Below are positions 1,083 through 40,850 of a stretch of 41,264 bases of DNA, in pieces. The DNA is taken from assembly GCF_001186125.1 (NCBI RefSeq), contig NW_014039749.1, forward strand, positions 1 to 41,264. The letters run 5' to 3'. The notes below the pieces were generated by a model. That model was not told the DNA's origin. It searched no databases and was given only the letters and a program-made list of their open reading frames with translations. The stretch is from Sphaeroforma arctica JP610 (taxonomy: Eukaryota). The position numbers and the translations under genes are program-made. Within the stretch, counting starts at the first letter, position 1. Each line of letters begins with the position of its first letter.

Positions 1083-2973
1083 ATGTCCAAGACTCCAGAA
1101 TACGGAAATCCACCTGACAGCACAGCTGATCTAGGGGGTGTATTTGAAGGCCTACCAGATGACGGGGATTCTGAAAATAGCGAACAGCGTATCTCCGCAG
1201 CCTCCAGACAGTCCCAAGCGTCCAATGCGTCGGAAGTAACACTCAAGGCTGAAGATGGGGATGCTGGTACCGATATAATAGGTACATCTGACAAGAACGC
1301 ACACGAAAGTGATACAGTGAGCGCATCTATTAGTGATGCACAAGAAAGTCGCAGTGTGAAGAGTGTATCATCCGGTAGTGGCAGAAGACTGCGCAATGTG
1401 CAGAGTGCCTTGAACATGCCCGTATTCGCTATGGGCGGCCAGATATTCTCGTACGATCACATGAGCCTGAACAAACTCAGTAGAGGGAATACGGTAGGTG
1501 ATGTAAACGCTGGTACACACAGAAAGAGGCCTCAGAGTGCTAAGGTATTGTGTGACACGAAGGACCGTGAAGTAGCGGGAGATGCAGCAGAGAGGACTGC
1601 ATTACCTCAGAGCGCAAATAGTATCAGCCGTAGTGCGAATACAAGAAAAGGAATACAACGCAAGAGCAAACCCGGAACACCGACGAATTTGGTGTTGAGT
1701 AGTGTGCACGGGAAGGGTGCGCAGGAGGATTTAACGGGTGGTTCAAGTTTTACTCAACACACTCCTGTTGGCACAGGTCATGATGCAGTACTAGGTGATG
1801 ATGACATTGACGTAGGTGTAGATGACACGAGCAGTCATGTATACGAGAAGGAAGTGGATAAATATACAGACAAACCACACGCACGCGAAATAGAAGAGAA
1901 TATACATGCCGATATAGCACACGCAAGCGACACGGAGATAGACGTCGGTGATGGTACGACAGAAGCTGTGGATGATGCTGATTTGGAGGTTAGAGCGATT
2001 GTGGGCGGTGAAGTGGAGGGACCAGTCCTGTCTACCACGACTGAGACAGAGACTGTGCCGGATACTGAGACAGCCAGCAAACCACCTAATACTGCGGAGG
2101 AGGATATTGAGACAACCGTTCAATCAAGTGAAGGTGTAAAGGAGGCTACAATCATCCAAGACACGGATACGACCGTTCAACAAAGTGATGATGCTAAGGA
2201 GGCTGAGAGCATTCCAGGTATTGAGACGGAAAATCAACCAGGCGAAGATACAAAAGAAGACAATACTATGCAAGATATCGAGACGACCGTTCAACAAAGT
2301 GATGATGTTAAGGAGGCTGAAAACATCTCAGATTTGGAGACAGAAAATCAACCAGGCGTAGATACAAAGCAGGACAGTACTATGCAAGATATCGAGACGA
2401 CCGTTCAACAAAGTGGTGATGTAAAGGAGGCTGAAAACATCTCAGATATGGAGACAGAAAATCAACCAGGCGAAGATACGAGGCAAGATGATACAAAGCA
2501 AGATATCGAGACGATCGTTCAACAAAGTGGTGATTTAAAGGAGGCTGACAACACATGTAACTCCGAGACTCTAGCAGTTCAACAAAGCTGCGATATTATG
2601 CAAACTGTCGATTTAGAAACAGAACAAAACGGCGATGATTCGAGGGATGCTGGGTCAGTGATGGACAAGCCTGACATTATTGCAGATGGCCGAGACAATA
2701 CGATAGAGGCGGCTGAGAGTGCTTGCAAGATTGCCCAGGCGGATACAAAGGCAGACGGGTCGGTTGAAGCAGTGTTGACTGAGGCCTCGGACCATAGTAG
2801 AGGTGAGGATCTGGGCGATACTGAGCATACTATAGATACCGAGGCTAGTGGGAGTGTGTTAAGTCTTACAGAAGGCGCCCAGCTTGTGGGCGGTGTACGG
2901 GGCTCGCAAGCGGAGAAAGATATGAGCTTGAACTTCGAACGACTCACCACCGATGAGCGGTCTACTGAAACAG
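1083..2973 (+). CDS. Formin exon 1: long acidic, low-complexity N-terminal region
   Basis: First ATG (1083) of the 645-aa ORF. The sequence is rich in D/E/T/S. Its donor CAG|GTACGT at 2973/2974 is phase 1 and joins exon 3734-3869 in frame. Confidence 0.8.
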
Positions 2974-8900: not shown

Positions 8901-11900
8901 CGTCATCATCAGTAGATAATAATTCTCCATTCGATAAAGGCGATGGTGAATCACAGGATTCTGACATGCCATGCAATGATTGGACTTCAGTGAGTGTCTA
9001 TAGCTAACTAAACTCATACAAATATTTGATTGCTGCGCGCTGTCACCTCCTTCCCGAGAACAGCAACAAATGCACCACCACCACCACCACCGCCACCGCC
9101 GCCACCAAGTAAGTCAGGCGTTTTGACTTTATACTATATAATAACATGACTTCGTCGTCTATAACAATAGGGCGAAGCTATGTCTTTGTAACATGGATTT
9201 ATGGCGCGTGACTGTCATTGTCATTCTAAACAGCTCTTACTACTGAGCTGTCGATTGCCTCTCCAGCCCTTCCGTATGTACAAATATGAAGTAACCTTAT
9301 TTATACTCGGATATTTTCTAGATTGGTTGGACGTCCAATGTGCTTATGGCGTTGGTACCGGTATATATGAATCATTACCTACGGAAACTTTGCATACGAC
9401 TCAAAAACAGAGTGACGCCAAATGGAGATTTATTCACCATTGCAGAGCGTCTATATATGTAGTACTATATTGAGTTTCGGCTCATTGTAGCCCTCATTGT
9501 GCTTTCTGCTACAGCTTCCAACGCACCACCACCCCCACCCCCCCCTCCGATGTCCAACGCACCGCCGCCACCACCCCCACCACCAGGTATGGGATACCCT
9601 TCTGTGAGTTACGGTCAGTAGTTCCCGTGTAACTTCCTACCTAGCGTCGTTTGATCGCATCCATTCCTTGTTGACTTCGTTTCGCGCGTTTTAATTGATA
9701 TATGTGCTATGAGGACGACAGTTTACAATTGACCTCGTCATTTCGCAGTAGATGTCTATTGTGCGTGGTCTCTGATCGTTCCAAATCATGGTCCTGATGC
9801 ATACGTACTCAGCGTAATCGCTTTCACTTTCGCCCGCCTGCCCGCTTTAGCATCAAATGCACCGCCACCACCACCACCACCACCGGCGTCGAGTGCTCCA
9901 CCACCACCACCACCGGCGTCGAGTGCTCCACCACCACCACCACCGGCGTCGAGTGCTCCACCACCACCACCACCGTCACCACCGGCGTCGAGTGCTCCAC
10001 CACCACCACCACCACCACCACCACCACCACCCCACCCCCATCAGGTGAGAAGCCAGTTTGTACCTATATGCTTGTGTTTGTGGGTATCACTTTGTATTTG
10101 GATGTGTCTTTGTATGTATACATCAATGTATTTTTGTATGTGCAGTTTTTTTTGGCAAGACTTTCATCTAACTCAAATCTTTGTCTGGCCTTATGGCCGG
10201 CGGAGCTCCACTACCACCGCCTCCGCTTTCATCAGTATTCGTTGCGGACGTTATGTGCATATTCCAATGCATACTCTCTTTGAAGGTTGCAGGGAATATT
10301 GTGCAGGCTTCGAATGAATGGTCTTCTTCATTTCTATTCACTTGACACCACATGTTATCCTAGTTCGTACTAGCCTACTTGCGGATATACGATATCCCAG
10401 AAGCATTGCGCCTTTTCTGAGCTTTACGCAATTGCTTTAAACATCCGTACAGGAGTAGCACAGCCACCACCGCCACCGCCGCCACCACCAGCTTCTGGTA
10501 TGCAACGGGTTTAAGTGTACAGCTGAATCTCGATGTATAAATCCATGAGGGGTTGATCTATGCCTGAACTTATGTTTCTACTTGAGGCGTGTAATGGTGG
10601 GTGGTACATTTGTTTGTATCTGCTTATAAGTTCGGATTCTGGTTGGGGATACTCCTTACATCCCGGTAATGCCAAGCGTAAAAGCTTCCTGAAAATGATT
10701 TCGAACATCCATGGCTAAGGCGATGCTAAGTTGAATCAGCGTAATTTGTCTATCGATATCATAAGCTCTTCGTGCCTTTAATTATCTAATTAATTTAGGT
10801 AATAATATGCACTGAGACTGAAAGACTTAAAACTTTCTTCATTTCTTCCCATATTTCATTCTCGTAGGCGGTCCTCCACCCCCACCCCCACCACCCCCAC
10901 CCTCAGGTATGCTTACTTAATCTATTGCTTGCAACTATCGCTCGTATACATCCCTTTACTCATCAACCTGTTATTTCTGTTGTGACTACATATAAGTGAA
11001 CCTGCATAATATATGTATCTCGCAAACAGTGGTTGGCATTGCATTCGCATGCAGCTAGTGAGCTACTGCGGAGGAGAAGTGCGCCACAGGCTCTGTGTGG
11101 CGTGTCTCCACATTTCGATGTGGGTACTTCCTGTTGTAATGCCACTCCGCTGAGTTTTTATCTTCACAATTTGACATTTACAACTGTGCAGGAGGAGCAC
11201 CACCACCACCACCACCACCGCCGCCACCACAACCCTCCGGTAAGTCAGGGTAGCATTTGACAAACACACGAATAAATGTACACATGGTATCAGATGAATG
11301 TACACATAATCTCAGCTTATATCAGTTAGGTTTCCTAAGTGAAGTGTAAGCAATTCATTGTTGTGGACCTGCTGGCTAGACATAATGTAGCACCAAAGTT
11401 GTACCTTTAAAACACCACGCACGAGGTGGCGCTATTGCTGCTAGAATGCATTACAGCCAAACCCGAGTTTAGGTAAGTTATACGAGTGTGCTTACTAGAT
11501 CGTACCACTAACAAACACGCCACTAACAAAAACAGGAGGAGGTCCACCACCACCACCGCCGCCGCCACCACCACCACCACCGGGTAAGTAACATTCAGTC
11601 AAGAATTTGGTCCCATAATCTACAGATTTGATGTATATTCGCAAGAATTGGCTAGCACGCCGCACAGAATACGTCGAACGACTTCGTATGTGCCTTTAAA
11701 ACAACTCAATGATATGCAATTGGAATCACGCACGAGAATCGCTCACGTCGCGTATACTTTTATTCTTGTATGCAGGAGGAGGAGCCCCAGCGCCACCACC
11801 ACCACCGCCACCACCAGGTATTTTATGTTTTGATACGGTTTTGACTTTACTCCGGCGGGTTATATATAATAGCTACTTACCATTCACGCGTTTGTGTATA

Positions 11901-14900
11901 TCCGACCAAACGTATTGGTTTTCTTGGAAAACTCTATGTATTGCTGGAGTTGGTCTACCTTCTCTCCCACTACCACCATGTACGCACAAGTTGCCAAACA
12001 ATTCCATAGTCGCACATCAGCTTTACTGTTATAAGGTATCCGCAGAAGCTACCATCATTCACGTGTAAGTATTCACGGCACGACACACATATCATGACTC
12101 ATTTTGCACACACATCGCGTTCGTCGCTACACACAGGCGGAGGTCCACCGCCCCCACCCCCACCACCAGGTACGTGGGAATGAATTCATATACAATATGC
12201 GCCTCCTTGCTTCGGCGCCTTCAAGGCATTGCTCAAGCCTGTTCTCAGTAGTGCACATGCCTGCGTAGTCTGACGGAACTGCGCTTCCTTTTAGTGACAA
12301 CCACCTGTATGTTTTTTATTCCTACCCAGGAGGAGGCCCACCACCGCCACCACCGCCTCCAGGTAAATATTGTTTAGTCAACGAACTAGTCCCATCCGCA
12401 GGGTTCACCACGGTGTTGTATCCGTACAGCTGTTCATCTATGTGTCTAGCTAGAAACAGTGTCGTACCTGATTATCGCTTTGTCATGCGAGTTTCATACA
12501 ATGTTTCAATCGCTAGCGTGACTATCAACACGGTAAACATTCAGAACAATATGTGTATGCCTTCAGTAGACAATTATGCGTATTCCTCGAAAGGTACATA
12601 CCAATGCATGATTCTTATAGTTCACTGTCATGTTTCTGTTCCATACAGGAGGCGGCCCACCGCCACCACCACCACCGCCAGGAGGAGGACCTCCGCCTCC
12701 ACCCCCACCCCCAGGTATGAATGTGTCAGTCATATTCATCATATGCACAACAATTCCTGCACATATACCGGTTTTATATTTAAAAATATATAGGTATGAG
12801 TGATGTATGGCTACTCTCCCGGGTGCATCATACGCACGAAGGGCTCGACATGTTGCCACATGATATTGTCTTTAATATATTTCTATATGGCCAGCTACAT
12901 GAATATGAACTTTTGCATATTCCGAATAAGATCGTTACGGGTTTTGCACGCATGCTTTCGACAACGCATACGCCGCTGCCTTCACGGAACATATACAAGC
13001 GCATGAACCAAATAATCTCTATTGTGATACACTTCCCTGTTCCACTGGTAGGACAATTGTGCAACCTAGCCAGGTTGAGCTGCAAGATAAGTGCCTTACT
13101 TTTGCCAACGGCGTACTACTCTCTATTTACGTGGACTCATGCATCGATGTATATATCTTTTTTGGTTCCGAGACTCAAAAGTTAGTGTGAGGAGAGTTTG
13201 CCAAATTTCCAGGAAGCAAGAGATATCTCGAGAAACTTGTATTAATCATATCTTTGGTCTTGATTGATGCTCTTCAGGTGTCGGACCCCCACCGCCCCCC
13301 GGGGCGCCAGCCGCGCCGGCCGCGCCGGTTGTGCGTAAGTACTGTAATCGACCTGTTTGAATCATATGGGAGAGTTGTATGTGGGTGTAGAGTCTGCTCT
13401 CCAGTTCGTTGTCGGTCGTGCATGTGGTTGTTTTGATGGTTGTGGATGTGGTTGTGATTCCTACCCCAAAGTAGCTGGCGTGTATCTGCTGTCACAGCAC
13501 TGAAGGTGTGTCGTCACACCAACGGAAAGTGCTGTACTGTTTTTGACTTTCAAGTTGTGAATCAATTCATGGTGGATTTCGGTTTCTACAAATTGATATT
13601 GCAAATTTGTGTTATGATTAGATTCTATCTAGTCACGTTCACGGCTTTATAATCAGATAAAAAGAGGTACATGACTGCTTGCACGTATGGGGTATATCGC
13701 TTGCGCAGGCGTTGTCCTCGACTCGAGGACACGTGATGTAGAAGTGGCTTTTACCTAATTGCTAATTATTTGTCCTAATTATTTTTAGCCCTGAGACCAA
13801 AGATTGTACCAAAGAAGAAAATGAGAAGTCTGTTTTGGAAAAAGGTGGAGATGAACAAGCTTTCGCAAGACAAGTAAGTGATGTCTAGCGCAATGAGAGG
13901 CATCCAACCAGTCACGAAGTGAGCTCAAATTGCAATTGTGCACAAGTTGGCGGGTTATTCTTTGTTCTTAAGGTCAAGACCCGGTGCAGAATCATGACGG
14001 TTTGTCGTATACTCGCACCGTCGTACAAACGTATCCTTATCGTGTTCTGTCGCATTGTCGTATTGTTGTTTTGTTGGGTCGTCTTCCTTCTAGGCTGCCC
14101 TGCTTTCATACGGGTGTGAAGCCAGAGCCCCTTCTGCGCATCTCCTGCCATTACAGCCTACCTCTGGAGGCGTGTTCCTACTGGAACCATCTGAGATCAA
14201 ACCAGTCTCTCCTGCCCGGGTTGATAGAGTATATTTTCATCGTACTGCCGTGAAATTTGTTATAGCCGTGGTAGTTTTCACCATCTCAAATTCAAAATCG
14301 TATACATATCGACCGCAGAGACAATGTGTGGAAGCATGTGGAGGACATTCCTATCGGAAAGATTGAAGACGAGCTACTGAAGCTCTTTGCACAAGCAGCG
14401 CCGGTGAAGAAGGAACCGGTTAGTGCAATTGGGTGTTATGAAGTGTGGACTAAAATGTTGATAATAGTGATACAGTATTTGCATATAAGTAATCTTATAT
14501 GTTGAGAATAGCAAGACATATATATATTTCAGACACTTTTAGGTGTATATCGACATGTTTGGGCCAGCATCACCGTATATGTCATAAATCACCAACGAGA
14601 GATGCTATTGATACAAAATTATAGCAACATCGTACGTGTATATCGGATGCTGATGGGTGTCTTTGTCACCATAGTGAGACTAACAACACGGTATATGCAT
14701 ATCAGATACCTATTGTTGTATGGTTGATAGTAGCAGCGGGGTGCGTGCCTTCAAGGCACTGGTAAGTGTAGATCGTTATGTTGGTGCAAACAGCACGTTA
14801 CAGGCAGATCCGACATTATTAAGTGTAAATTCATATGTTGACGCTAGCAAATTGGCATGTGAATATCGGACGCTAGTTAGTTGTTATCTTGAGGACATTG

Positions 14901-17900
14901 CTTATACGACACGAACGAAACAGAGACTGTGGAGGTATATGAACAGGACACGATCAGCTATACCGTCTATGTATATCCGATACTGGGGAGTGTGTACATC
15001 AGCAACGTTTACTACACTGATGAGCGTGTGTATCGTAGTCATAGTACTCATATACGTGCCCCGGTCACATATTCTCGTGCAGAAAGCCGTGGAGGAAAAG
15101 CCAAAAGTGGCTCAAATATTAGATTCCAAGCGATCACAAGCCGTGGGCATTGTGATAAATAGTCTCCAGCGCAAAGGATTGGGTATCGATGAGGTGAAGA
15201 AAGCCATTCTCGAAGTAGATTCAGAAAAATTAGGGAACGATAATGTGCAACAAATAGCCTCCGTACTGGGAAAGCCGGAAGAATTGGCACAAATTAGGAG
15301 TCATGTGGGATCAAGCGATACACCTTTGGACCGGCCTGAACAGTACGCTTCGTGTAACTGTCGTTGTGTTAAAATATACATCTGAAGACGAAACAGGACA
15401 TTTTTTTGTGCTATTCTTTTGATTGTATGTGTTTGTACAATCATAAGTCTAGAAATGTGATTCGCAGAACGGGGTCAAATATACGTTTCGGAGTGCAAGT
15501 ATATAATTTACTGGGTGTGCATATCCACGATTTCTTGCTTGCGTCTTCACAGATACTGGTAGCAATAATTTGCATGTCATCATACCGGTAGTACGGCCAA
15601 ATATGCCCTTACTATAGGTACTTGAAAGGAATACGTTGGCAATAATCCATACTGCTGTACTCTTCTCTCGGTGTACTACATTGAGTGTGTCTGTACACAT
15701 GCAAGGCCGTGTGTGTGTGGTTGCAAGAAGTGCTGTGCGAGAGCGATGACACGTGCACCGTACTGTGCGCATGGGCACACTTGTTCTATGGGTTTACCCC
15801 TTGTTGTACGCAAATATTTATTTGTACACAAATATACTTCTGCATTGAGCTATGTAGACGTGTACAAATGGATTACAGGGTGCAGCGACAGTGTATTTGC
15901 TTGTTGTGGGTAATTTTACCTGTGACTGTGTTCACTCTCTGTCGTCTAGAAACAGTGCCATCACTATATGTGCCATGTGTCGTATGTGACGAGTAGAGCA
16001 TGTCTCATGCAATTAACTAGTTGTTTTATGACTGTTGTGTGCTGAAGATATGATTTTTCTTCTTCTATCAGGTTCCTACTGACTCTAGATGAAATACCGG
16101 CGCTAGAGGCATGGATGGAGTGCTGGAGATTCAAAAGTATATGGCAAGAGGAGCTCGATGAATGCGAGGGCAAGATCGACTCCGTCACCAAAGCAATACA
16201 CGTATGTCGATACGCATCTGTACCTAAAACAACGTATCCAAAGTACATGCCAACACAGGCGCCACACACGCTGGCTGTGAAACACGACAGAGATACTAAG
16301 CAATCGCTGAAACGGCATGGTGGGGGGGGGGGGGGGGGTTTTCATGTTGATATCAACACTGCGTGTTTGCATTCCTCCTTCTATTAAGTACATTACAAAG
16401 TATATTCAAATCCATACCCTCAGGCTATACGAGACAATGAGGCTATCAAAGAAGTGCTGGCTTGGGCCTTATGTATAGGCAACTACATGAATGGTGGCAC
16501 CAACAGAGGTCAGGCAGACGGATTTGCCATTGAGCTTATCCCAAAACTGGGAGATGTCAAAGTATGTCAATAGGGCCTGTTATCAGACTAGACGACCGAA
16601 ATGGTACTTCAAACTTTATTTTGTGAGCGTATGTGCGTTCCAACATGTGTTTTCATGCATTTATATCTCTGACACTAATAGTTGCTCTCGGTTATATTTA
16701 TTACTCCCATAGTACGCAGCCTTTATCTAGGGCATGTTAACTCGGCTCTCCATGGAGTGGTACCAATATCATGTACATGTTTATGACAGATAGTAATGTC
16801 TTCAATATGCACCTCCCTGAACTTCCCACACAAATTCGTATCGTCTGTACGGAACATTTGGTTACCAGTCAGCAGATCAGAAGACAACCCTGATCAGTTA
16901 CGTAATGTCAAAGTTATACTACAAGGGTATCGACATCAACGAGATCATCGATGCCATTGTCGCGAAGGGCCAGGCAGAGCCTCCGAAAATTCGTAAGTGA
17001 GAATACTGTACCATATTTGACCAAACAAGGACCTATTCCGGCTTTCTGTAGTGTCCAGAGTGTATCTTCTGGCCATACAGAGATACAAACTTGAACAGTA
17101 GTGAGACGCCGGTGCAAGGTTTGTTCACGGCTACTAGAGGGTACTTGTACGAATCGTGAAGAAGTGCTTCGATGTATATGGTCTATGTTGAAGTGTTCAA
17201 CGTTAAGGTAGCGCTGTCTTAAATTATAGTCCCAGAGATACGTGAACAGGGGCCTCTGCATGCCCACACTGACTCGGTTAAAGTATGTAGCACAGCAATA
17301 ATGGGAACACAAACATTCAGCGATCCTTGCACTGACCACGCTATAACAAGTTCGAGGTAGCACTGTTATGGCTAGAGGAAGACGCAGTGCCCGCTGTGGA
17401 AGTAAAGGCCATGTACTCTTGCAGATCTTAAACGAGCATTTGATTATCTGCTGCGTTGATATCACTATTGCAATCTACGGGTTATATGTGGAAGGATTCA
17501 CCCACACATGAGATGTATGACGAAATTGATCTGACGTTCACTTATTGATATGTCCTGTCGCTGAGCTGACTTTGACATTTTCCACTTCTCTCGCTCTACC
17601 ACCTGCTACTACAGCTTTCCCGTTACCGGCTGTGTCGATGTGTGAGAAAGGCGCCAGAATCAGTTTTGAAGACGTAACGAGCAATGTGGCCCAATTAGAC
17701 AAGCTTTTGAAAAGTATGATTTTCTTTTTTACTGAGCTCACAACTTTTCTCTGTTGGGAACCATCACTCTACCATAGGCGTCGATTCCGACCGTTGAATT
17801 GAAGACATGTTCGCCCTGGCAGGCTGTATAGTTTCTTGTGCTACCTCTGAACATGTTACACGCAATGGTCTTTAGTTAATTAGCATATCTTGAGGACGTA

Positions 17901-21086: not shown

Positions 21087-24000
21087 ATGCTAGTTAGGAG
21101 CTATGGACGCATTCGCATGAACTATGTGCCATCATATATAAGATGCGGTATGGGAAGCCCAGGCGGACGAATGATCTCGTCGACAGGTCAAAGCTCGACG
21201 GAGACGCACACAGAATTTGAACAGCCGCGCTCGATCACCCAGCGACGAGACGAAAGCACACAGTACACCTATACTCCTGGAGAAGGCCAGGTATGTTCTG
21301 CCTGAAGTTGACTTCAATGAAAATCATAATTTTATCAGTCATAGGGTAGCTGTCAAGCTCATGGTATATCACGCATGAAGTCGGGCCTATCATTCAATGA
21401 TTGACCAGAATACTATGCATTCAGTGTAACTGTTTTTGAGCAGTGTGCTTGTATATATCTATGTTTTTGTTTATATGTATATTTCGTATATAAGAGATAC
21501 CAGTCTTTAGCGCTACGTGCGCACTACAGAATTTTACGCGTGACAAGTTTAATTCTCGGAACTGAAATCTCTGTCAACACTTCTATGTTCACAATGAAAT
21601 AAGTATTCGAAGTACGATTGTAAGATTACGTATTCACAGTCATGTAAAAGCCACAAGGTCTGAATGAAACTTAAGTTGTTTTCGAATGCCTGACTAATTC
21701 TGTTTAATCTCCAAGTATTCGGGCAATGTGAGTGTACAGGTTATAGGTTCTAGCGTCTGACTAATATTCTTCTATGTTCTGTCTATCAGAGCAAGGTGAA
21801 TGTAAAGCATCTCGGCTCCGCTGGAATTCAAGGCGGGGTGACTGCAATTAGGCAATTTCTTCAGACCACTTTTCTGCCAGCGGGATACCCGGAGAGTCTT
21901 GGTCCAGGGTATCTCACGTTCGTTAAATATCAGGTACGTTGCTTCATGCCTAGTATAGTTTTCTTGAGATACGATACTGGCGTTAAATATCAGATACGTT
22001 GCTTAATATTCTTCTCTGCTTGAAGGCGAAGTCTTAAATTCTGGATACCAGGTGGTAGACCTTCGGCTTATGTACTTTGACATTTGCACGATGATACTTT
22101 GTACTATTTAAAGCCATCCAGTTGTTCGGCATTTGATACTGATACTGGTGCGCGTCTATTACAAATATAGTTTCCATTAACACGTTGATTGAAAATATTT
22201 GGCAACCATGTTATTGCCTACTTATGTGTTTGTGCGCTATGCAGCCTTGATTGTGAACGGCATGCTTGCATCTCGGGTTCCTTTTCGCTTCGTAGCACTC
22301 GTATTGCCCGGGTTCCATGCTGATATTCTACAGTACATCCGCGTATGATATCACTCGAGTTGCATTGGCGTGTATACGTCTGAATTCCACTTATCACCCG
22401 CACATCGACGTAACTTCCAGGTTATTATTCCCTCATCAGTCTTTGCATCACGTAGCCTCGAGTGTAAACGGCGTGCTTGCGTCTACGTTTCTTTTGTACG
22501 GCGTAGGCCTAGGCGAGAGCGCAGCCCCTGTTGCCGGTGCTGTCAATTGGGTCCTAAAAGATGGGTTGGGCCAGATAGGAACTCTGATGTTTGGCAAATT
22601 GATTGGTATGAACTATGCGTCTTGTTCATAGCGCATACTCTCCCACTCTCCACTGCTATACTATTGGAAATTAACCGTAAATCGTGATAATGACATGCAT
22701 TCAGTGGATTTGCCGGCCACTCATGCTCCCTACCCACATCATAACCATTGGCAATTGATCGTCTTTTAACAACTCGTGTATTACTGTATGGATTTTTTTT
22801 GGCAGCTCACAGATTTGATCTGAACGCGAAGACTTGGTATCTGTCTGCATCAGTGATGCTGAACGTAGGTATGTTTGGCCCGTTTCGATGTAAAATACCT
22901 ACCGCTTCTATTTTTCAAGCATCAAAGATATCGGTTAGGAAACATTTGGTCATTCAAAAAGCGTGTAGTCGCTCATACAGATCGATTTTCTCTCTTGCAA
23001 TGGATCAAATATTGAGTGGCTGTACTTTTACTAAACTCCGCTGTTTCGTACTCTATACTTATTTAGGCGTGTATCTCGAGTTGTCAACATTCATGGCTCC
23101 CCACCACTTTCTGGTATTGGCTTCGCTCGCTAATGGAATAAAGGTACGAGGAGCTGCCATATCTTGATCACTGGGTTAAGTATCGTGAGCACGGTTTCTC
23201 CTTATGGTGCAAGCACAATATATGCTACGTTCGCAATCCACAGCGCGACAGTCGTTTTGCGACGTGATCGGGGTACTGCACGTTAGACACTTGAATATCC
23301 ACTTTCGATAGGAATGGAGTGATGTTGAGATGAATCTTGAGTGGAGGGTACCATGGTACCTATAGTACGTATCTATATTCATAGGGTTTAAACAGGAATG
23401 GGTGGAATGCTTCATGTACTATAGCAATATTGATAACGGATATTTGCGCATTTCCCGAATTGAACCACGCCTGTTTAATTTATACCCGATTTACATCCCA
23501 ACTAGCCTAGTAGTGATTACGCCGTATATTTTTGAATCGGCCTGTCACAATTTGTATCGATTTGCTAGGGGCTTGCTTGGATGGCGGGTGGTTCGACGCG
23601 CTCCGCCTTCAATGTAAGCTTTGCCAGGGCCAACAACATTGCAGACATCACTGCGAAGGCTACTGCTCAAACGATCACCGCGTCTCTCTTCGGTAATATT
23701 CTACAAAGCTATCTATAGTGTTCTGGTTTGTGCAGCGGTACACCGTACTTTTCTCCGTGTAGATTCAAGGGCCATGGTTACCCGACGTAGGACCACACAG
23801 TACGGCTATCTCCTTGTGCTCAAACAATTGATACTGCTTAACATCGCATCTGAAGTCTCACTATCTTTTATCAACTCAGGAAACCTTATCGGCGTGTACC
23901 TCTGTAGTCAAATCGGTCAATCGCTCCAGTATGCTGTGGCGGCATGTGCGATCACATCTTGCGTGCATCTGGGTGCGGGTATGTCTTTACATCCGAAGCT

Positions 24001-25852
24001 ATCAATGTTTTTGCGTTGGCGATAAACTTACAACCTGCATACTCTCTTCGAAAGCACAAGTGTATCTTATTTTGTATGAGTGTGTGAATATACTGCCGGA
24101 TTATTGTGTAATTCGTACACGTGTTTTAACTGTAAAGTATCCTTTTCTTAGCTAGTCGTTCGTAATATGCGCACAGGTTGCCGTTGCCGTTAGCACAACA
24201 GTGCCACAGCTACGGCACTGTGACCGCTGGGTATTGAACATGGGGCGAATGGGTTAGAGATAGTTTCTGATGATGTGATACTAAATACCAATACATAGTG
24301 AGATCCTTGTTTTTGTGTTGGGACCCCCTCTGGGGCCTAGTATGGCTCAACAACGATTTTGTAATGACTCGGGTTAGGTATACTCGTAACATATATTTTG
24401 ATTCTTGTACCAACATACACAGCTTATTGGTGCGTGCGAAACATTCCGCTGAGCACCTTAAACCCCAGCCGGTTGCAGCTTCTTACAGATAGATTCCTGG
24501 ACTATCGCCGCTCACGTATGACTAGTGCACCTGAAAACCACGATAAAGGTACCCGCGGGACAACTCAATTGGCTCTAATCTATACTGTTGTCACAAACTA
24601 CTTTTTGTTCCGCGTGAAGGGTTTCAATCAATGTGCCTTCGCATAGTTCTCGTTCATGAACTGCTTTTCTGCTTTCTATATTAGAATGGGATCAATGTAT
24701 GCTCAACAACAACGGATGCGACCAAATCTTGAAAATCGAGTAGTTGCAATAGTCTGACTGTATCTTTTTTTTATGGAATCAATACAATGTTGTCTGTCCT
24801 TTCCGCAGCTCTGCCAAACCCAACCGACTTGGCTTTAGAGGACCCAGCCGTCCATTTTCCGCGTGTGCAGGTACAATTGAGAATGAGTTCATTTTTCCTT
24901 TTAATTCAGACTAGTTTATCACTGTTTATGACGGCGATGCAATCGTGGTGGATCACTCAGAAATTTGCGATGATGAGATTTCCAGAATATTGCTATAATT
25001 TTAAATTGTTTGAACCCTACCTAAGTTGTCAATGAATGTTCCACTGTAGCGCGACCAACGATTCTTGCCCGCCATCTCCGTTGGTGTGGATGTGATAGAG
25101 CTCTGTGGAGGCTCATCGAAGAAATTAGACGAACTACTCCAAATATATAAGGATTTGCCTTATATTGCCTCTGTAGATGATGCTGACGGGTCTGTTATGC
25201 TGGTGTTCAAGGAGGACGCCACTCCCCATCAGTGTCTTCGAGGTATATTTGGCATGTTGAAGTTCGAATGTCTTTTGAGGGTCAATTTAGCTGAACATGC
25301 ATCGATGGTCGGCAAAGGGTTTGATACTTGAAGGGGTTATAAGTCCGCACGCAGATTTTCGGTTTATAATCCACTACAAATCAAAAATATTAAGCAGTTC
25401 ACTAATAGATCATCTCTGCTGCTCAGGGTACCTGAATGCATGCATATTAAGAGACAGCTCTCGACAATGCCAACGAATAGATCGAACACCTGGTATGTTA
25501 CTTTTGTGCCTGTAGCGGTGCATGTCGTGTTGGAATGCGTGTGCGATTTTGTTGTTGCAACTATACGGCTCGGCTGATCTCTTTTTGTCAATTTTTTCGA
25601 ATACCTTCGCTTGCATTGTTGTGATTAGACGTATCTATTGTGCTGAAATAGTGCACTTCACTTCACCTCACACACCATGAATGCTCTTTCTTAAATCGAA
25701 ACAAATACGGAGCAGCCAGCAGAGTACAACTACTCGAAGCGATAGAGGAAAGCACTGCTGCTCAGGCCGAATATGTTGCACAGCTTGAAAGTACTGGATG
25801 GCATTATAAGCGCTTACAAATAGAGATAAATTCGAATAGAGCTATGTGGTAA
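21087..25852 (+). CDS. RUSF1: RUS1 / DUF647 (root UVB sensitive, C16orf58-like) family membrane protein, 12 exons, 486 aa
   Basis: Exons 21087-21290, 21790-21933, 22440-22605, 22806-22868, 23067-23143, 23569-23692, 23880-23978, 24423-24548, 24809-24870, 25050-25242, 25427-25492, 25716-25852, with all phases consistent (1461 nt). Family motifs: FLPAGYPES, WVLKDGLGQIG, RFDLNAKTW, NNIADITAK, TLNPSRL and the C-terminal LESTGW...RAMW*. The symbol is family-level. Confidence 0.88.
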
Positions 25853-27221: not shown

Positions 27222-28124
27222 CTATAATTGGCCTACGAATCGTTCCGTGGGCTTTTTTCTTTTGGTGAATTTCGTTAATGAAGTAAAGATTCGCGCAACG
27301 CGGGCTGACCTACGTGGCGATTGGTTGATATACTCACAATCAACTAAATATCTCAGGTTATACCACTTCAAGTGTACGTGTTGCAATAAGTAGCGTATAG
27401 CTCCGTGCACTAGCTGGGATACCAGCATCGTGGGTCCAAGGGTGATTTCAACCACTTTTGATCGCCTTGTCTCTTTTTCAACTAAACTTGCATACAACTG
27501 TGGGGTTGTACTGATAGTGGACTGGTTACCTATTCGAACTATACAGGTTTCTGGATTAAGGCCTGCCTCTTCTCCCACACTGCCCCTTTCAATATATGAT
27601 ATGTTGCCATCACCTGTAAATGTAACTCCGATTTGATCGCTGAAACGTCTGTGGGCTTTGGAGACATGTTTCGGAACGTGAATAACATATTTTGAGAATG
27701 CACTCTGATCCACCAATTCTATGGTAAGCACAGATGAAGTGTCCAGCTGCTCATTCGCGTCTTGAATAACATCGGATACTTTATAAGCCAATGCTTCCAG
27801 AGACAACGCGTTGATCGAGGTCAGCTCGTCACCGAATCTGAGTCCTGCTCTAAAGGCCGCAGTGAATGTGTTGTCTGCGTTGTATCTTTCCACATAAGCT
27901 ATATAAATGGTATTCCCCACAAAAATAAGAAATATACCAAATGCCTGCCCGGCCTCTTTCTTCACCCTAACTTCTCGTCTTCTGGTGGAGAAAAATTCTT
28001 CCCGCCAGCTTGGGCCTTTCTCCCTATGAATTGAGGTATCAATACCGAAAGTATCAGCTATCACTTGTTGACTGTTTGTCCCTGTGTTTTTGGTGTTTAA
28101 GTATGCAAAACTTTGAGACTCTTG
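27222..28124 (-). CDS. Syntenin-like tandem-PDZ protein, single long coding exon, 5' end unresolved
   Basis: REVRVKKEAGQAFGIFL...AGLRFGDELTSIN (PDZ1, with the syntenin-type GLRFGD) followed by QIGVTFTGDGNISYIERGSVGEEAGL...IVRIGNQ (PDZ2). The frame is open to a stop at 28146-28148 with no upstream ATG. There is a likely acceptor ACCAACAG| at 28125/28124. Confidence 0.75.
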   Translation of the reverse strand, partial: QESQSFAYLNTKNTGTNSQQVIADTFGIDTSIHREKGPSWREEFFSTRRREVRVKKEAGQAFGIFLIFVGNTIYIAYVERYNADNTFTAAFRAGLRFGDELTSINALSLEALAYKVSDVIQDANEQLDTSSVLTIELVDQSAFSKYVIHVPKHVSKAHRRFSDQIGVTFTGDGNISYIERGSVGEEAGLNPETCIVRIGNQSTISTTPQLYASLVEKETRRSKVVEITLGPTMLVSQLVHGAIRYLLQHVHLKWYNLRYLVDCEYINQSPRRSARVARIFTSLTKFTKRKKPTERFVGQL

Positions 28125-28149
28125 CTGTTGGTATTTTATATTGCCTCAC

Positions 28150-32800: not shown

Positions 32801-33281
32801 AGAAAGACATACACGCTTTGTCTAAATATATTTAGAAGGCTATGTTTTTATATTTCGATAAAATATTTAATAAAGGATACTCTAGCGGGGTCACAAATGA
32901 ACAAAAACTCATTTTGTGCCTATTAATTAGTTGTAAAGGGTCTCAAATGGGCAAACCGCGTTTCAAGCCGGATTTTTAAGCGTCACGAATGTTTTTTGGC
33001 GACAGACAAGAGATCGGTGATAATGTCAATAGAGACTTTTTTAAAAGATGAGCTTCCTTACCCCTATGATTGATTTTACGCCTTAAAAGACCCTACGCGT
33101 CCCAGCCGTGATTTATATATATATATAACAATTATATATGAGATCGGTAGTTCGGTACATACAATTTAATTAAAAATACATGGTACATATGTATCTACCG
33201 ACAATCCATTAACCATAACCTACATACCGAGCTCTGCTCATACCGCCTTCTTTATTTTTTAAAGAAAATATTGTTTCAGCT

Positions 33282-33720
33282 ACTTGCTTGCTGGCGCGTG
33301 TGAGATAGGATTGCTCACCATCCATCGTCCGATGAATCTACCTTCACTGCCGCCCTTCGCTTATCCACCTTCAGAATTAAAAGAAAATGTTTTATATACG
33401 TGTCAGTACCGTGAGAAAAGAGGTTTTATTCGCCGATTGCGTACTGGCGAATACGGCGACCAAACGCTCACCCTGCTTCATCACATGAATGCACCTTCAC
33501 TGTCATCCTTTGACAATTATTCTTATAATACATCTTTAGTATTAGAATGAAGTTTACACATGGACAGAACCGCGAGCAAACACTGCATGAATTTTTAATT
33601 TTATTTGGCTGCTTGCTTACTGGCGTAAGGGATGATTTTGCTAATCAGACCAGCCATCATCCGATGATTCCTGTATTGTATCAAATTTATACCTATCAGA
33701 ACCGCGAGCACACACTACAA
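33282..33720 (-). repeat. Three diverged tandem copies of the terminal acidic exon region
   Basis: Shared blocks include CAG(A/T)ACCG(C/T)GAG at ~33403, ~33565 and ~33697, CCATCRTCCGATGA at ~33322 and ~33654, and ACCTTCACTG at ~33340 and ~33493. Confidence 0.8.
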
Positions 33721-36700
33721 TATCATTGACAGCAAACAACAACAGAAGTACACGGCCACATCCGCATGCACGGAAAAACATTACAAATTTGCGCTCCAAG
33801 TGAAATGAACACGCAGCGCAAGTGCAAAGCGACAATAATTTGCGCAGCAAATTATAATGTGGCTACGTTATAGGGTAGTACTTGGCTGGATGACGAAGAA
33901 TAACCTGTAGTTGAAAAGCAAGAGGGGGAGGGGAGTTCGATCTCCATCCGATTGCGTGAACAAGAACACACAAGCACTACACTCACCATCTTGTTAATTG
34001 TGTCGTAGATGCTATTCGGGGGTATAGGCGATTTTGGTGCCTCCGACGGGAGGGGGCTGGTGGGCTTCAGCTGTTTACCTGTGCGTGCGCATGAAAGCTG
34101 ATTGCTTAGAACACTGTCAGGGTGTACAATATAATTGTATGTTCGAATAAATGTCGAAGTGTGATCTGAGACGAAATCATATGACTCTCGACGTTGATAG
34201 TTCCAACAGTAGTAGGGACCTATTTTCTTCTTCTTTAAAAAACGCATTAAAACCTATTCCGTAAGTAACCATTCCGACCATATCATCGTCTGATCAACAA
34301 TCCCCAGGTCAATCGGTGAGGAGCATACCACTCAACACTCTATCGCTTTGACAAATCCTACATACCCCGCTTGATGTCGTCTAAGAAACTTGATCCGCCT
34401 GCCGCCTTCGTCACGGGTTGGGTGTTCGTAGGCACTTGCTTACCTAACGCTTGTGCAGGTTTAGGCACAGCCGGGCGCGCGAGTTCTTCTGATTTTCTTG
34501 ACCTCGTAGTGACTGTAGAGACGCACGTGGAAACGCGCATAGCCAGAGCGGATGGCCATTTGGGTAATAAGTACATCAGCGTCAATACTCATAGGTAGAT
34601 GCGGCAACAGGAGATGGGTTCTTTGAATTATACAGGCAGGTGAGAATATTCTAGTCTACATATATAGCATACACATAATTTTAAGCACACGCGAAAGTAC
34701 GAGCATATATGGATACACGCACATACAGTTTGTGTTTACCTTGAGGTGAGGCTTGTGGGAAATTATACCTATCGGCGCGCTATGGGTGGGGACAGCTCAA
34801 AAAGATGGGAAGTTGTGAGTGCGAGTGCTCACAACTTTAGACAAAACTTTCATGCATACACAAAGATAGGTTCATACGCACACATGGGAATAAGTATCAC
34901 AGACACAGACAGATAAATTGCATATACCTATCGGCGCGCTATGGGTGGGGACAGCTCAAAAAGATGGGAAGTTGTGAGTGCGAGAGCACACAACTTTAGA
35001 CAAAACTTTCATGCATACTCATAGATAAGTTCATACGCACACATGGGAATTAGTATCACAGACACAGACAGATACATTCCATACATGTTCAAATTAGAAT
35101 CCAGCTTCTATGAATACCGGTGTGGCTGCTGCTATGAAAGTAAGTCCTCGGACAGTGTCAGTGCGAGTGCGCCCATCTGCAGACACGCATATAAGGAAGT
35201 ACATGTATACAGCCACACACACACACATATCAAGCCTGTACAGATACACACATACGTATATTCCATACACTTCTTCGACAATATACTAGTGGAGTACCAT
35301 ACCTGTGGGGGCGGCCACGGGAGGAGGCAATTCATCGGGGATGGACGGCGCGGGGGGAAGCACGTCCATATCATCCTCGTCGTCGGAAAGAGGGGGTGGC
35401 GGAGGAAGGTCGTCTAGGCTGATAGGTTCTTCCGCTGTATTGTGTAGGGGGTTCACATGTTTTGGATCCTCGAGCGTAGACATGACGCCGAAGCTGAAGA
35501 ACAGGCACACGGCTGTGCACAAGATGCCGTACTTGATGCCCTGTAATGCTTCCTCTGTTGGGAGCATATAAACAAAGTTTGTGTGAGAGTATTATTCGAC
35601 TGTTGATCGGTACGAGTGAATCTGATATAGTAAATATATACGTGCACATACGTGCGTCTTTGTGAGAAATATTGTGTGTATGGTTTCTATGGCAAGAAGT
35701 GACATACATACACGAATCTGCACCACAAGGTGATTGTGATAGGGGCTTGTTGTGCCAACAAACCACTTCAGCCAATATTGCCAGGACATATATTCTCTAT
35801 AGGTCATCGACCCATTAAAGGTAATACAGACATGCATGTAAGTATACATAAATACAAACGTAGGGCAAATTCATAGCTTCTTATACTGAACAGCTTGCAT
35901 CTATTCACATTCATACCTTTGTCATGGAAGAAGTGCTGGGTAGACTTGAGCACTCTTAGCACCATCGCCTGGTAGACACCGCAAAAGCCGAGGTAGATGA
36001 AGCCCATCAGCCGAGAGTCGTAGCACCAGGCCAACGTGCCCAGGAAGAACATACATGCGGTGGTGACTGTGTACATAAACCAGTGACCTGTGACGGAGTG
36101 TAGGGTTTAAGCGTGGGTCCTCGGTCGCTCGAGGATGTAGGAAAAGTGGACGTACGGAACCGAACGATCGTTATAATCGAGCAACAAAGGTTGAATAAGG
36201 ATAGGCATCAAAAGCCTATATCAATCGTGAATAGGAATAGGCATCAGAAGTCTATATCAATTAAATAGAGATATTCATCTTGAGTAACCCGAAACAGTTT
36301 CGTTGGAAGTGAAGTTCTAATATTCGACGATGCAAAGGTTGCTTACAACATGCTCGACAGTCGAAGAATTGTCCAAATGGCGTAGTATTTAGTGTATACA
36401 GAACATCAAACCAAATTGAGAACGTCTGATTTCTTTTGACTAACCAAACTTGTATACATTTCATACGGTGAAGTTCCTGATTGAATTTCAATAAGCAAAC
36501 AGGTAAGCCGAAAAACACGCACATGCACATGTGTATATGTATATATGTATATATATATATATATATAATATATTATATATACTATTTGTCTCTCTCTCGC
36601 ATATATATATATATATATACTATTTGTCTCTCTCTCGCGCTATATATATATTATTATATATATATATGTCTTGTCTCTCTCTCGCGCTATAAGTATANNN

Positions 36701-37148
36701 NNNNNNNNNNNNNNNNNNNNNNNNNNNNNNNNNNNNNNNNNNNNNNNNNNNNNNNNNNNNNNNNNNNNNNNNNNNNNNNNNNNNNNNNNNNNNNNNNNNN
36801 NNNNNNNNNNNNNNNNNNNNNNNNNNNNNNNNNNNNNNNNNNNNNNNNNNNNNNNNNNNNNNNNNNNNNNNNNNNNNNNNNNNNNNNNNNNNNNNNNNNN
36901 NNNNNNNNNNNNNNNNNNNNNNNNNNNNNNNNNNNNNNNNNNNNNNNNNNNNNNNNNNNNNNNNNNNNNNNNNNNNNNNNNNNNNNNNNNNNNNNNNNNN
37001 NNNNNNNNNNNNNNNNNNNNNNNNNNNNNNNNNNNNNNNNNNNNNNNNNNNNNNNNNNNNNNNNNNNNNNNNNNNNNNNNNNNNNNNNNNNNNNNNNNNN
37101 NNNNNNNNNNNNNNNNNNNNNNNNNNNNNNNNNNNNNNTATATATTAG

Positions 37149-37214: not shown

Positions 37215-40200
37215 ATGCGTGTTTTAAAATGGTTAAAATAGTTAAGCGAACAACAAAGGTGTCAATGTCCGTCCGCGGGCACATGCAAAGGTAACGACCA
37301 CATGAATTGAGTAATATACAAAGTCAGATCAACGACCGTTCAGAGACTTACCTGAAATTTCCATGCATTGGTCATACTGATGGGATTCTATGAAGACAAA
37401 GTACACGAAGAAGGACAGGGCCGTCCAGATGATACCGTATACAGATCCCGTGCGAACCTATAATTAACAAGGGCCATATGATGCCAGATCCTCAAAACAT
37501 TTTCATACAGGTACCATGACACCGAAATTTGATGTCTCATATGAACCTATGGACAACGACGGGATCATGTGACGCTTGCTATCTATCTAAGATATACGTT
37601 CTTACATATATCGTCACAACAAGTATCGATATAGAATGTTTTCATGAGAGAGCTGAGAAAATACATCGAGGATGACAATTGCGTAACACACTCTGATATT
37701 TCCGCCAATTTTACTTTTAATACACAAAAAAAGAACAAGTGTGTCAACAAGAGAATGTGTCGGATCCGAGTGATAGCCCTATCAGATTCAAACCTCCCAC
37801 ACTCAGCAAATATGATTCGATACTCTGTACATAGAGCTAATCGGACGCGATAAACGTTTCATAAAATTGGAATCCGAACCTTTACACCATGCAGTAAAGA
37901 TTCCCTCTTACTTGCATACAGTAAAGATCCGCTCTTACTTGCATATCGCAGCAAAGGCAGGAAATATCTGATGCATATCTGATACAGTCTCTTGCGCTAT
38001 TTGATAGTAATAGTACAACGATCTACCAACGTTCCAGGATAGATCTTGAGATACACTAGACACAAAGATGAAGACCATACCAAATCAATGAACCCGGCCT
38101 GTGCAATGCCACGATCAATTGCTAGCGGAGTGGAAATCCCGAACGACTTCGCGTACAATGCTGACTGAATGGATGACCGATTCCACGATAATTTCAATGC
38201 GAGAAAAATTAGTAAATTCATTTATTCAGTGCTACATCGGATCTTTCAAAATTCGAAACATTTTGAATAGACTCATTGTATACTGTTGGATTTGTGATCT
38301 GTGATTTGTATACAATGGCGCAGAATGCGATAATCATCATCGCTACAAGCGGTCGGTGCACGTGGTTGTAGACAGTGCGTCACAGTCACAAACAACTTCA
38401 GTACCTTCGAAGTAATGGGCACCAAAACATAACACATACGGCGACGTTATAAAAGGTACATTTCCGGAGTCACGATACACCGGTATTATATCCAGAAGAT
38501 TCTTTGCCCATGGTTCCATTTATAAAACACGCACTAATTCCTGTACGTTCGTATACCACTCTTGTATCAAAGTGCTTACCAAGATGGCGAAGAAAGGAAG
38601 CGGTGCACATGCAACCCCAAGACCATTGATGAACACCCTGCAGTCGATAAAACAAGATCCACAGGATGAATTATGAATATAGTTGTACCAAAACACATTT
38701 ATGCGACGAGGGGGTTAAGGGCAGTAGCCGATGGAAGGGTGATATTGATCTGACATAGATAACATTGAAAATAATTTTCATAATTAAATTTTTATTATTA
38801 TTCAAGGACAATCTGAAGCTAACAATATACGTACTGAAATCATTAGCATCACATCAACCCCTCAGGGAGGTCAATGCGTATCGCATAGAAGAAATACATG
38901 CTATTCCTATTCATGCTCATGCCGCACAGGCATGCTCGCAATATAATTCCCCATGATACGAAAGTGTGCATTGGCAAATTGACTACAGAGCCCGACACGT
39001 GACAACAAACCAAGACGGGGAAGGACAGCTATGACACCGAGACAGTTGTGGGCCTGTAGATTGTTTGCAGGTCATATGAACATAGACGTCACAGAACACA
39101 AAGACGTATTTGACTCAGGTAGACGTCGAAATCACATTCAACGGAAGAAGGTACATACATCTAGCGTATTCCGCTATTCGTCAACATTCACCGTATTCGT
39201 ACACGTGCATATATCAAATGATAATCTCTCTATTATGCTCACAGGAATAGACAGCTATTCCGATTCATCCTAACAAACCTGTTTACGATGGGTCTTAGCA
39301 TTCGATCGATGTCCTGTCTGGCCTTCTTGGAGAATTCGGCTGCCAACTGCTTCGAAGTGATTCCGGCTGCCCTGAGTGCTTGGTCAGCTAGTAAGAAACA
39401 CGCAGGAATTAAAAATAAGATAATACAACCACTTCTTTATCATGCATGTGCTCGAGCATAGGTGTGGTTCAGTCCTACAATACAGCGTGAGCATACATAT
39501 AATGCATACACACCACAACAGTGGTATGGGGCACAAATACACACTCCACTGTCGCCATGATTATGTTACCGATATCCAAGTCCAAAAATGGAGCAGACAG
39601 AAATGTATTAGTACAGTTATACTTACTCGAGCAACAAAAGAGTACATACACCAAGCGCAGGGTACAGCTCATACGGCGAACAGCACAAGACGCGGCAAAT
39701 GCATGGTAACGTATAGAAAGCAGACACGACTCGGAACAAACACATCACCAACAAGGAAGCGCAAGCGTTTGCTACGTGGATATACCCAATCACTTCTAGT
39801 AGATCATATGTACTGGAACCATACCTTCGATCAAATTGCCCATCTTCATTTCTACCTCACATATTCTCCTTCCTTCAGCTTTGAGCGCCTGAATTTCGGG
39901 GTCAGTGTTCTGTGCACCACAAGCGGATTCGCAGAATCTATTAGCGTTGCAACACGAACGGAGACGCTCGAATCGCTCTAACGAACCGAGCTGATATTAC
40001 CTGCAGTTGTATCTGATCTCCTATCAATGTGAAATATTAGGTGAAGATACACATAGACGTTTACATACTATAAGTGCACTATGAATCTTTATCAACATAT
40101 ACTAATAAGTATAAGTACATAAACATATATATACTGTGCACAATTTTTTTCTTTCTACTTTATGGCATGGAATACGCTGGGATAGCGAAGAACAATAAGA

Positions 40201-40666
40201 AACAGGCGACCCCAACAACTGTTCAACTTCTCACCGGGAATAATATTCAACAACATCCGGTAAACGACTCTAGTTAGAAAACTAGTTCAAGTATCTATAA
40301 TCAACTGCAGTGACCATACTGTATTTTGTGATATTGTGTATGTACTTCTGTCATGTGAAAAAAGCACTTATTAAGTCATTATATATCTACCTCTCCCTCG
40401 TGCCAAGCGTAGACAACACGTATGTGCAGTCTCTGCTTCTGCGTAAACCGATCTTCACATGTAATACATCAACAATAATGAATGGGCGCAACGTGAAACG
40501 GCATGATGCACACGCACACATACCTGTAGAAAGTGTGGGAATTCGACATAAACAGAAAGCACAGCTCCAATGAAGAACAGTACCATCAACACCGACAGAT
40601 GTATTTTAGGAAGATCAAATAGACGTCGACCATTACCAAGTTTCTTCTGGCAGAAATGCACAAAAA
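33315..40666 (-). CDS. Multi-pass membrane protein with a C-terminal Pro-rich region and WH2-C-Acidic (WCA/VCA) module; 5' end lies outside the window; ~470-480 aa visible
   Basis: Phase-consistent minus-strand exons: 40666-40524, 39909-39861, 39387-39279, 38637-38580, 38164-38027 (or alternative donor at 38081), 37457-37352, 36087-35917, 35554-35303, 35176-35118 (or a 14-nt version from 35131), 34779-34740, 34512-34366, 34078-33987. These are followed by either 33368-33315 or 33904-33882 plus 33692-33641. There are 6-7 hydrophobic segments, then DDLPPPPPLSDDEDD, then SSFLDDIKRGKQLKPT...NSIYDTINKM-VDKRRAAVKVDSSDDGW*. Confidence 0.75.
34764..35074. repeat. Recent ~160-bp tandem duplication spanning a minus-strand splice acceptor
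   Basis: TATACCTATCGGCGCGCTATGGGTGGGGACAGCTCAAAAAGATGGGAAGTTGTGAGTGCGAG... occurs at 34764 and 34923 with few differences. Confidence 0.92.
36698..37138. other. Assembly gap (441 N) flanked by TA microsatellite
   Basis: N run inside an intron of the minus-strand gene. The flanking exons join in phase 1 without needing an extra exon. Confidence 0.99.
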
Positions 40667-40850
40667 CTGAGGTATTTGCGCGTAGGATGAAAAGATCAAT
40701 ATTAAAATCGATACAACTGTCAGGTCATGAAAACACATGGTAAGTAAGAATGTCATTGGGTGCCGATTAAACCACGAAAAAATCATTATTAGGTAATATA
40801 CACGAATGTAACATAGACAATCACAAAGCAGAACCGACAAACCGTTCTAC

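Follow-up and report, generated by a model that had tools for sequence, protein, structure and literature searches.

A triplicated last exon and a candidate C-truncating splice cassette in a predicted membrane-bound Arp2/3 activator of Sphaeroforma arctica

The gene SARC_08706 of Sphaeroforma arctica, a unicellular relative of animals, lies on the minus strand of the window, by which we mean the whole 41,264-nt stretch of contig NW_014039749.1 analysed here. Sequence related to its last exon is found three times in tandem, which raises the question of which copies are spliced into the transcript and what kind of protein tail each would make. The initial annotation had proposed two alternative C-acidic tails that could tune Arp2/3 binding. 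One, route (a), would run from the end of the penultimate exon at 33987 through a micro-exon (33904–33882) to an exon at 33692–33641 in copy 1, and the other, route (b), directly from 33987 to copy 3. Copy 2, between them, was described as decayed.

NCBI annotates two products of the gene, on a model flagged as partial at its 5′ end. P0002 (435 aa) has the tail of route (b), made by joining 33987 to 33368, and a ‘variant’, P0001 (427 aa), has a tail made by a direct coding join from 33987 to 33670. The features of the gene are collected in Table 1. Contigs that we call RNA-like (see below) reach upstream only as loose ends at 36090. Hand-built 5′ exons at 40020–40001 and 39937–39910 were dropped, since the NCBI model fits the alignment with the Creolimax orthologue better. 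An assembly gap of 441 N (36698–37138) falls within an intron of the gene, and a dispersed repeat matched by many unrelated DNA-like and RNA-like contigs lies just past the 3′ UTR (32930–33040). A tandem duplication of 159 nt (34764–35083, 95% identical), with a diverged third copy near 35120–35260, lies in the intron that separates the proline-rich exon from the WH2 exon. The 159-nt duplication is bypassed in every spliced contig and is covered by low-depth unspliced contigs only.

Table 1. Features of SARC_08706 in the window, in order of transcription
Feature	Positions	Strand	Evidence
Six upstream coding exons, membrane domain (about 40673–40524, 39909–39825, 39387–39279, 38637–38580, 38164–38078, 37457–37352)	37352–40673	−	P0002 mapped on the window; Creolimax alignment
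Exon: His of SGH, two membrane helices, His of H-x3-E	35917–36087	−	RNA-like contigs
Exon: end of H-x3-E motif, last membrane helix, proline-rich region	35303–35554	−	RNA-like contigs
Exon: linker and WH2 helix	34366–34512	−	RNA-like contigs; Pfam WH2 E 0.024, below cut-off
Penultimate exon: WH2 end, linker, C-helix hydrophobes 1 and 2; phase-0 donor	33987–34078	−	Spliced in 7/7 RNA-like runs; aligns with N-WASP C helix
Proposed micro-exon: acceptor looks good, donor weak	33882–33904	−	Bypassed in 7/7 spliced contigs
Copy 1 as used: 50-nt cassette exon with 9 codons and stop, 20 nt, then GTAAGC donor at 33620	33621–33670	−	X10 contig; P0001 ends here
Copy 2: decayed unit, in-frame acceptor 33534 and GTACGC donor 33444 retained, Trp to Gly	33445–33533	−	Sequence; bypassed in 7/7 spliced contigs
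Copy 3, coding part of last exon: C-helix end (KRR, final hydrophobe) and acidic Trp end	33315–33368	−	Joint 33987 to 33368 in 6/7 spliced runs; P0002; Creolimax tail match
3′ UTR of last exon; AATAAA 33256, ATTAAA 33170	33151–33314	−	Contig ends 33151–33234; poly-T loose end 33151 in X10

Copies of the last exon and the junctions that join them

The three repeat units (33712–33582, 33581–33419 and 33418–33256; 131, 163 and 163 nt respectively) have in common an intronic branch-site block, an acidic core and a 3′ UTR block. Their pairwise alignment scores were 73.5, 84 and 110, compared with shuffle means of 36–42, and none of 500 shuffles reached any of these scores, confirming that the last exon is triplicated as the initial annotation had stated. 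A DNA-like contig (run X1) covers 32900–34793 with no differences from the window, and the triplication is therefore not an assembly artefact. Routes (a) and (b) are both open in frame and translate as claimed. Copy 2 also reads as described, with its tryptophan replaced (by glycine). Five of the seven core residues are changed in copy 2, as against one of seven, an Asp/Glu change, in copy 1. Copy 2 would be a dead by-product. Copies 1 and 3 differ at 3 of the 21 bases of the seven-codon core, and all three differences are at third positions (chance 0.026, in a small sample picked after the fact). From this comparison the SSDDGW core of copy 1 looks constrained. The earlier suggestion of selection on the tryptophan motif is thus favoured by the position of the differences, and weakened by the size and post hoc choice of the sample.

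Splicing was compared in 8 of 21 listed runs. Seven of these gave spliced contigs and are termed RNA-like from their spliced GT-AG joints, none being on record as RNA; the eighth is the DNA-like run X1. A contig retains a single path, with rare forms lost, so that inclusion levels do not follow from these joints. The junction from 33987 to 33368 was present in six of the seven spliced runs: X3–X7, which match the window exactly, and X11, from a relative that differs from it at 16 of 668 exon bases. Of the two sets of junctions put forward for checking in the initial annotation, that of route (b) was therefore recovered, whereas the path from 33987 to 33904 and on to 33692 was found in 0/7 runs. 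Neither the micro-exon, nor the acceptor before 33692, nor copy 2 was used in any of the seven spliced RNA-like runs. The lack of coverage over the micro-exon and copy 2 is informative only because contigs join across both, and rare forms could still occur.

The remaining spliced run, X10, represents a close relative (18 differences in 666 exon bases). Its main contig, at a depth of 86.4, skips 33986–33671 and 33620–33369, and has 51 letters between the flanking pieces. The cassette was placed from these joints and from a spacing as expected for a 50-nt exon, not from its own letters. The cassette so placed (33670–33621) has exact GT-AG ends, and was included in one contig from one of the seven spliced runs. 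As copy 1 is entered at 33670, left at the donor at 33620 and spliced to copy 3, it is an internal cassette in X10 and not a terminal exon. The cassette transcript is known from a relative, the five window-identical runs showing skipping only; NCBI annotates the coding join of the X10 cassette form for S. arctica (P0001). Copy 1 can thus be spliced in, as had been claimed, but from 33670, as an internal cassette and with no micro-exon. The splice event is real, and smaller than first proposed.

Composition of the two tails

The major tail, made by splicing to copy 3, contains a WH2-like motif, a complete C helix with the basic residues KRR, and an acidic end with tryptophan. Section 11 of PMC3298513 describes the C domain as three hydrophobic residues with a three-residue spacing, plus a K/R doublet and a last hydrophobe. 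A strict form of this pattern was passed by P0002 and by P0003, the Creolimax orthologue (45% identity), and failed by P0001. The tail of P0003 matches that of route (b), and since the orthologue ends alike, the route (b) tail would be the ancestral end. A two-sequence profile of P0002 and P0003 matched N-WASP over its WH2-C segment (E 4.8e-4), and the C helices lay in register. The profile match and the C-domain pattern together bear out the earlier description of the tail as C-acidic, in a WH2-C-A-like arrangement.

The remaining elements of the tail are less regular. Pfam scored the WH2 of P0002 at 14.8 bits against a cut-off of 23.1 (E 0.024); the helix-plus-LK pattern is present, and the motif departs at two positions, with Phe first and Pro in LKKT, from the WH2 pattern in the available sections of PMC3298513. 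Pfam scans of single exons gave nothing above the cut-off. A proline-rich region precedes the VCA segment (12 prolines in 30 residues of P0002). The acidic end with tryptophan occurs in both isoforms and in Creolimax, and is short and weakly acidic, with three acidic residues near the tryptophan. From its motifs, the major tail is predicted with good probability to activate Arp2/3.

The cassette adds just 9 residues, and copy 3 then becomes 3′ UTR. The resulting tail keeps the WH2-like motif and the acidic tryptophan, and is without the third C-helix hydrophobe, KRR and the final hydrophobe. We scored the possible tails with a C+A profile built on the 50 C-terminal residues of each of 18 further members of the family. 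Creolimax gave 20.6 bits and route (b) 17.3 bits, compared with at most 2.0 for the four other routes; the cassette form gave −1.3 and route (a) −0.2. With copy 1 dropping the C-helix end and KRR, the proposal of two full alternative C-acidic tails does not hold. The most likely product of the cassette is a protein truncated in C, and the splice choice, as predicted from sequence, is between a complete and a C-truncated tail and not between two tuned tails.

According to the available text of PMC2175181, deletion of the five basic residues of this motif in ActA cripples nucleation, while binding to Arp2/3 persists in a mutant that has lost the entire region; similar behaviour is reported for N-WASP. 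As the basic C motif is lost from the cassette form, as in the ActA mutants, this form would be expected to bind Arp2/3 but to activate it poorly.

The membrane domain and its family

The N-terminal 295 residues of the protein are a membrane helical bundle. The hydropathy profile of P0003 shows seven helices; SGH immediately precedes the fifth of them and H-x3-E the last. Word-index protein searches yielded P0001 and P0003 as the only matches. A full profile search yielded 42 cluster representatives at E≤0.001, which have in common a membrane domain of 6–7 helices bearing the motifs SGH and H-x3-E/D. Twenty-eight of the representatives were aligned with P0002, making 29 proteins in all; the remaining 14 rows, most of them short, were omitted. 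Both C-x3-SGHW and L-x3-Q-x3-H occur without exception in this alignment.

A structure model of P0003 had a pLDDT of 80, mostly >90 in the membrane half; a model made from a two-sequence alignment had a pLDDT of 40 and was unusable. When the P0003 model was compared with 48,161 chains, the best 11 matches were all of PAP2 type (PgpB, G6PC1, Aur1, vanadium haloperoxidases, SMSr, LpxE and LPP1), with 144–194 residues aligned at rmsd 4.4–7.7 and Z 5.9–7.7, moderate values given that Z below 8 is within the range reached by helical bundles. The next match, unrelated, had Z 5.4. We take G6PC1, Aur1, LpxE and the haloperoxidases to belong to the PAP2/LPT superfamily. Foldseek gave PgpB at E 0.1 (probability 0.72) and no match at E≤0.001, and a 29-row profile searched against PDB sequences gave nothing under E 0.069. 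In the ESM Atlas there was no usable match for P0002, and P0006 matched only TMEM117 at 0.81, which is chance level. Among the matches listed, there was none to Pfam PAP2, FIT or Scs3p in the family.

The motifs provide a separate line of evidence. In the available text of PMC5798408, the LPT motifs are C2, which is SGH, and C3, which is H-x3-D/E with E in FITMs; C1 is absent from FITMs and SMS. The C2 motif SGH is invariant in 29/29 aligned rows, and C-x3-4-SGHW is found in 36/42 representatives, the rest being mostly fragments. SGH and H-x3-E/D are both present in 30 of the 31 testable rows (28 with E and two with D), C3 lying in the loop before the last helix. The C1 pattern of classic LPPs, K-x6-RP, occurs in 4/31 rows, scattered 91–177 residues before SGH, and in neither P0001 nor P0003, and the FITM motif K-x-N-O-O-N (loop 1/2) was found in 0/31 rows. 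The Z values for the fold are moderate, yet the SGH and H-x3-E/D motifs agree with it independently. We consider it probable, from the model, that the N-terminal half has a PAP2/lipid-phosphatase-like fold with both catalytic histidines. Since the SGH and H-x3-E loops are luminal in LPTs, the tail would be in the cytosol.

Acidic W/F ends were found in 21 of the 25 long members of the family, defined as having the second motif followed by at least 100 residues. Seventeen of the 25 also have a WH2-like match and ten pass the strict C pattern; these regex counts are rough, P0018 being a likely false positive and the WH2 of P0003 being missed by one pattern and found by another. Pfam WH2 was matched at E≤1 in 6 of the 29 aligned members (best 9e-5). 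Several family members have two or more WH2 repeats. A few members carry SH3, WW or CCDC53-like domains in a Pfam scan; by eye, such parts were assigned to P0007, P0012, P0015, P0016 and P0023. Two of 20 representatives checked bear an organism name (Hondaea fermentalgiana and Mucochytrium quahogii), and the acidic tail is present in both proteins. We take both organisms to be stramenopiles, and the UniRef suffix agrees for Hondaea. In a tree of 28 membrane domains Sphaeroforma groups with Creolimax and the tails are scattered over the tree, which is poorly resolved (10/25 branches starred; 14/42 rows left out as fragments or with a motif missing) and settles neither origin nor transfer.

The literature searched, outside which most subscription journals lie, yielded no description of a multipass or PAP2-like VCA protein or Arp2/3 activator. 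The available text of PMC10330494 (a 2023 review), PMC7112243 and PMC3748353 contains nothing on such membrane VCA proteins. A family joining a predicted lipid-phosphatase-like membrane domain to an Arp2/3 signal is apparently undescribed so far.

Standing of the splice choice and relation to known systems

After tandem triplication of the last exon of SARC_08706, the major transcript skips copies 1 and 2 and ends in copy 3, and the tail that it encodes is conserved in Creolimax and more widely in the family. The major form would be a membrane-embedded class I nucleation-promoting factor, and from its predicted domains the product is most likely an integral-membrane protein of this class with a lipid-phosphatase-like domain. 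By the topology of the superfamily, the active site of the PAP2-like domain would face the lumen or the outside and the tail the cytosol. Copy 1, the spare copy, would act as an optional stop-carrying cassette, swapping the complete WH2-C-A tail for a C-truncated tail that likely binds without activating. The cassette form would keep actin binding and the tryptophan anchor and lose the basic C motif, and would be a weak or competing form. Junction-dependent decay follows a 50–55-nt rule. With its stop codon only 20 nt upstream of the last junction, the cassette mRNA would escape such decay. On balance, and with modest confidence, we lean towards this mechanism as a whole.

The chief rival accepts the host as a membrane-bound Arp2/3 activator but takes copy 1 for a neutral leftover, included occasionally through noisy splicing or a peculiarity of a single lineage. 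The cassette is skipped in six of the seven spliced runs, the signal of constraint rests on 21 bases, and the inherited GT donor and AG acceptor survive in the dead copy 2 too. The second recent tandem duplication (159 nt, 95%), in the upstream intron of the same gene, means that duplication here need not be selected. The available text of an S. arctica transcriptome study judges alternative splicing to be without a major role in the cycle, over which splicing changes little, although exon skipping is reported for 914 genes (PMC6855841). Against neutrality, the cassette path is the main contig in X10, the core has changed in one residue of seven in copy 1 as opposed to five in copy 2, and an NCBI product of S. 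arctica itself has an identical coding join. We regard a neutral copy 1 as rather unlikely, though a serious contender, and incline somewhat towards the cassette being a used switch rather than noise.

Two further readings concern how copy 1 is reached and left. It could also be a true alternative last exon, entered at 33670 and with its own poly(A) site, in which case the protein would be the same as that of the cassette form. AATAAA at 33605 and ATTAAA at 33599 lie downstream of copy 1, and P0001 fixes the coding join only, not the 3′ end; but the sole copy-1 contig splices to copy 3, and a contig over 33620–33580 was found in 0/7 spliced runs, making such an exon improbable. Two full C-acidic tails, one of them through the micro-exon of route (a), would fit the open frame and the long pyrimidine tract of the acceptor at 33905. 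The micro-exon donor, GTACTA, is however weak and unlike the five verified donors, and the 22 bases proposed as the start of the copy 1 exon (33692–33671) align with the intron of copy 3. Moreover, route (a) is used by none of the seven spliced runs and by neither NCBI product, and its score on the C+A profile is below zero. We consider it very improbable indeed.

The preferred reading, an internal cassette that truncates the C domain of a membrane-bound activator, can be set beside several known systems. The SARC_08706 product resembles the class I nucleation-promoting factors of the WASP family in its proline-rich region, WH2-like motif, basic-cluster C helix and acidic tryptophan end. It differs in starting with a 6–7-helix membrane domain instead of WH1, WHD or IMD; Pfam WH1, WHD, WAHD, WMD, GBD and IMD had no match at E≤10 in the product. 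In the available text of PMC3298513 and PMC10330494, the N-terminal domains by which eukaryotic class I activators of Arp2/3 are defined are soluble ones. The same text of the WASP-family survey presents no transmembrane member, the word ‘transmembrane’ occurring 0 times in it, and treats a new N-terminal domain on VCA as a new subfamily (PMC3298513). By that criterion a multipass membrane protein ending in a WH2-C-A tail of its own would establish a new subfamily.

Aplysia WASP likewise has duplicated exons that alter the C domain, and these mutually exclusive exons are, in the available sections of PMC3298513, the sole alternative splicing in the WASP-family genes surveyed. The Aplysia gene swaps two WH2-C versions, whereas the SARC_08706 cassette truncates C and brings its own acidic tryptophan end. 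With one spliced case in those sections of the survey, a splice event removing the activating motif would be unusual. Listeria ActA is bacterial, with a single anchor, another motif order, no WH2 homology and no enzyme-like domain. It is likewise a membrane-anchored Arp2/3 activator, and its activation of the complex depends on a basic C-like motif more than its binding does (PMC2175181, available text).

In the PAP2/LPT superfamily, FITM/Scs3 is nearest by motif: in both families SGH opens helix 4, H-x3-E precedes the last helix, a Cys pair is conserved and C1 is absent (PMC5798408, available text). The SARC_08706 family is without K-x-N-O-O-N and, among the matches listed, without one to Pfam PAP2 or Scs3p, and has a WH2-C-A tail. 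We know of no WCA in PLPPR/PRG proteins. These animal proteins also pair a PAP2-like fold with long cytosolic tails (PMC9520309).

The presence of an enzyme-like domain points to a direct connection of membrane lipids with actin branching. Cellularization in S. arctica depends on Arp2/3 for actin nodes and membrane invagination (PMC6855841, available text), which makes SARC_08706 a testable candidate for placing Arp2/3 at the membrane. In a broader and more speculative version, which we hold to be doubtful, the proteins would form an old eukaryotic family, present in Holozoa and stramenopiles, that combines an active lipid phosphatase or phosphotransferase with an Arp2/3 activator in one membrane protein. 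Such a protein would link outer-leaflet lipid chemistry to branched actin on the inner side, and the duplicate exon of Sphaeroforma would be a regulated switch from activator to competitor.

Other genes were also observed in the window. An open frame of 656 codons (1029–2999, plus strand) is acidic and internally repetitive, with no Pfam match at E≤0.01. A gene of the RUS/UVB_sens_prot family lies at about 22300–25330 on the plus strand (E 7.1e-13), and a 307-codon open frame at 27222–28145 on the minus strand has a PDZ domain (E 9.3e-9). A formin gene, with proline-rich exons and FH2 matches (E 1.4e-12 at 14684–15382), occupies about 9700–17800 on the plus strand. The presence of this second actin nucleator 15 kb from SARC_08706 is probably due to chance.
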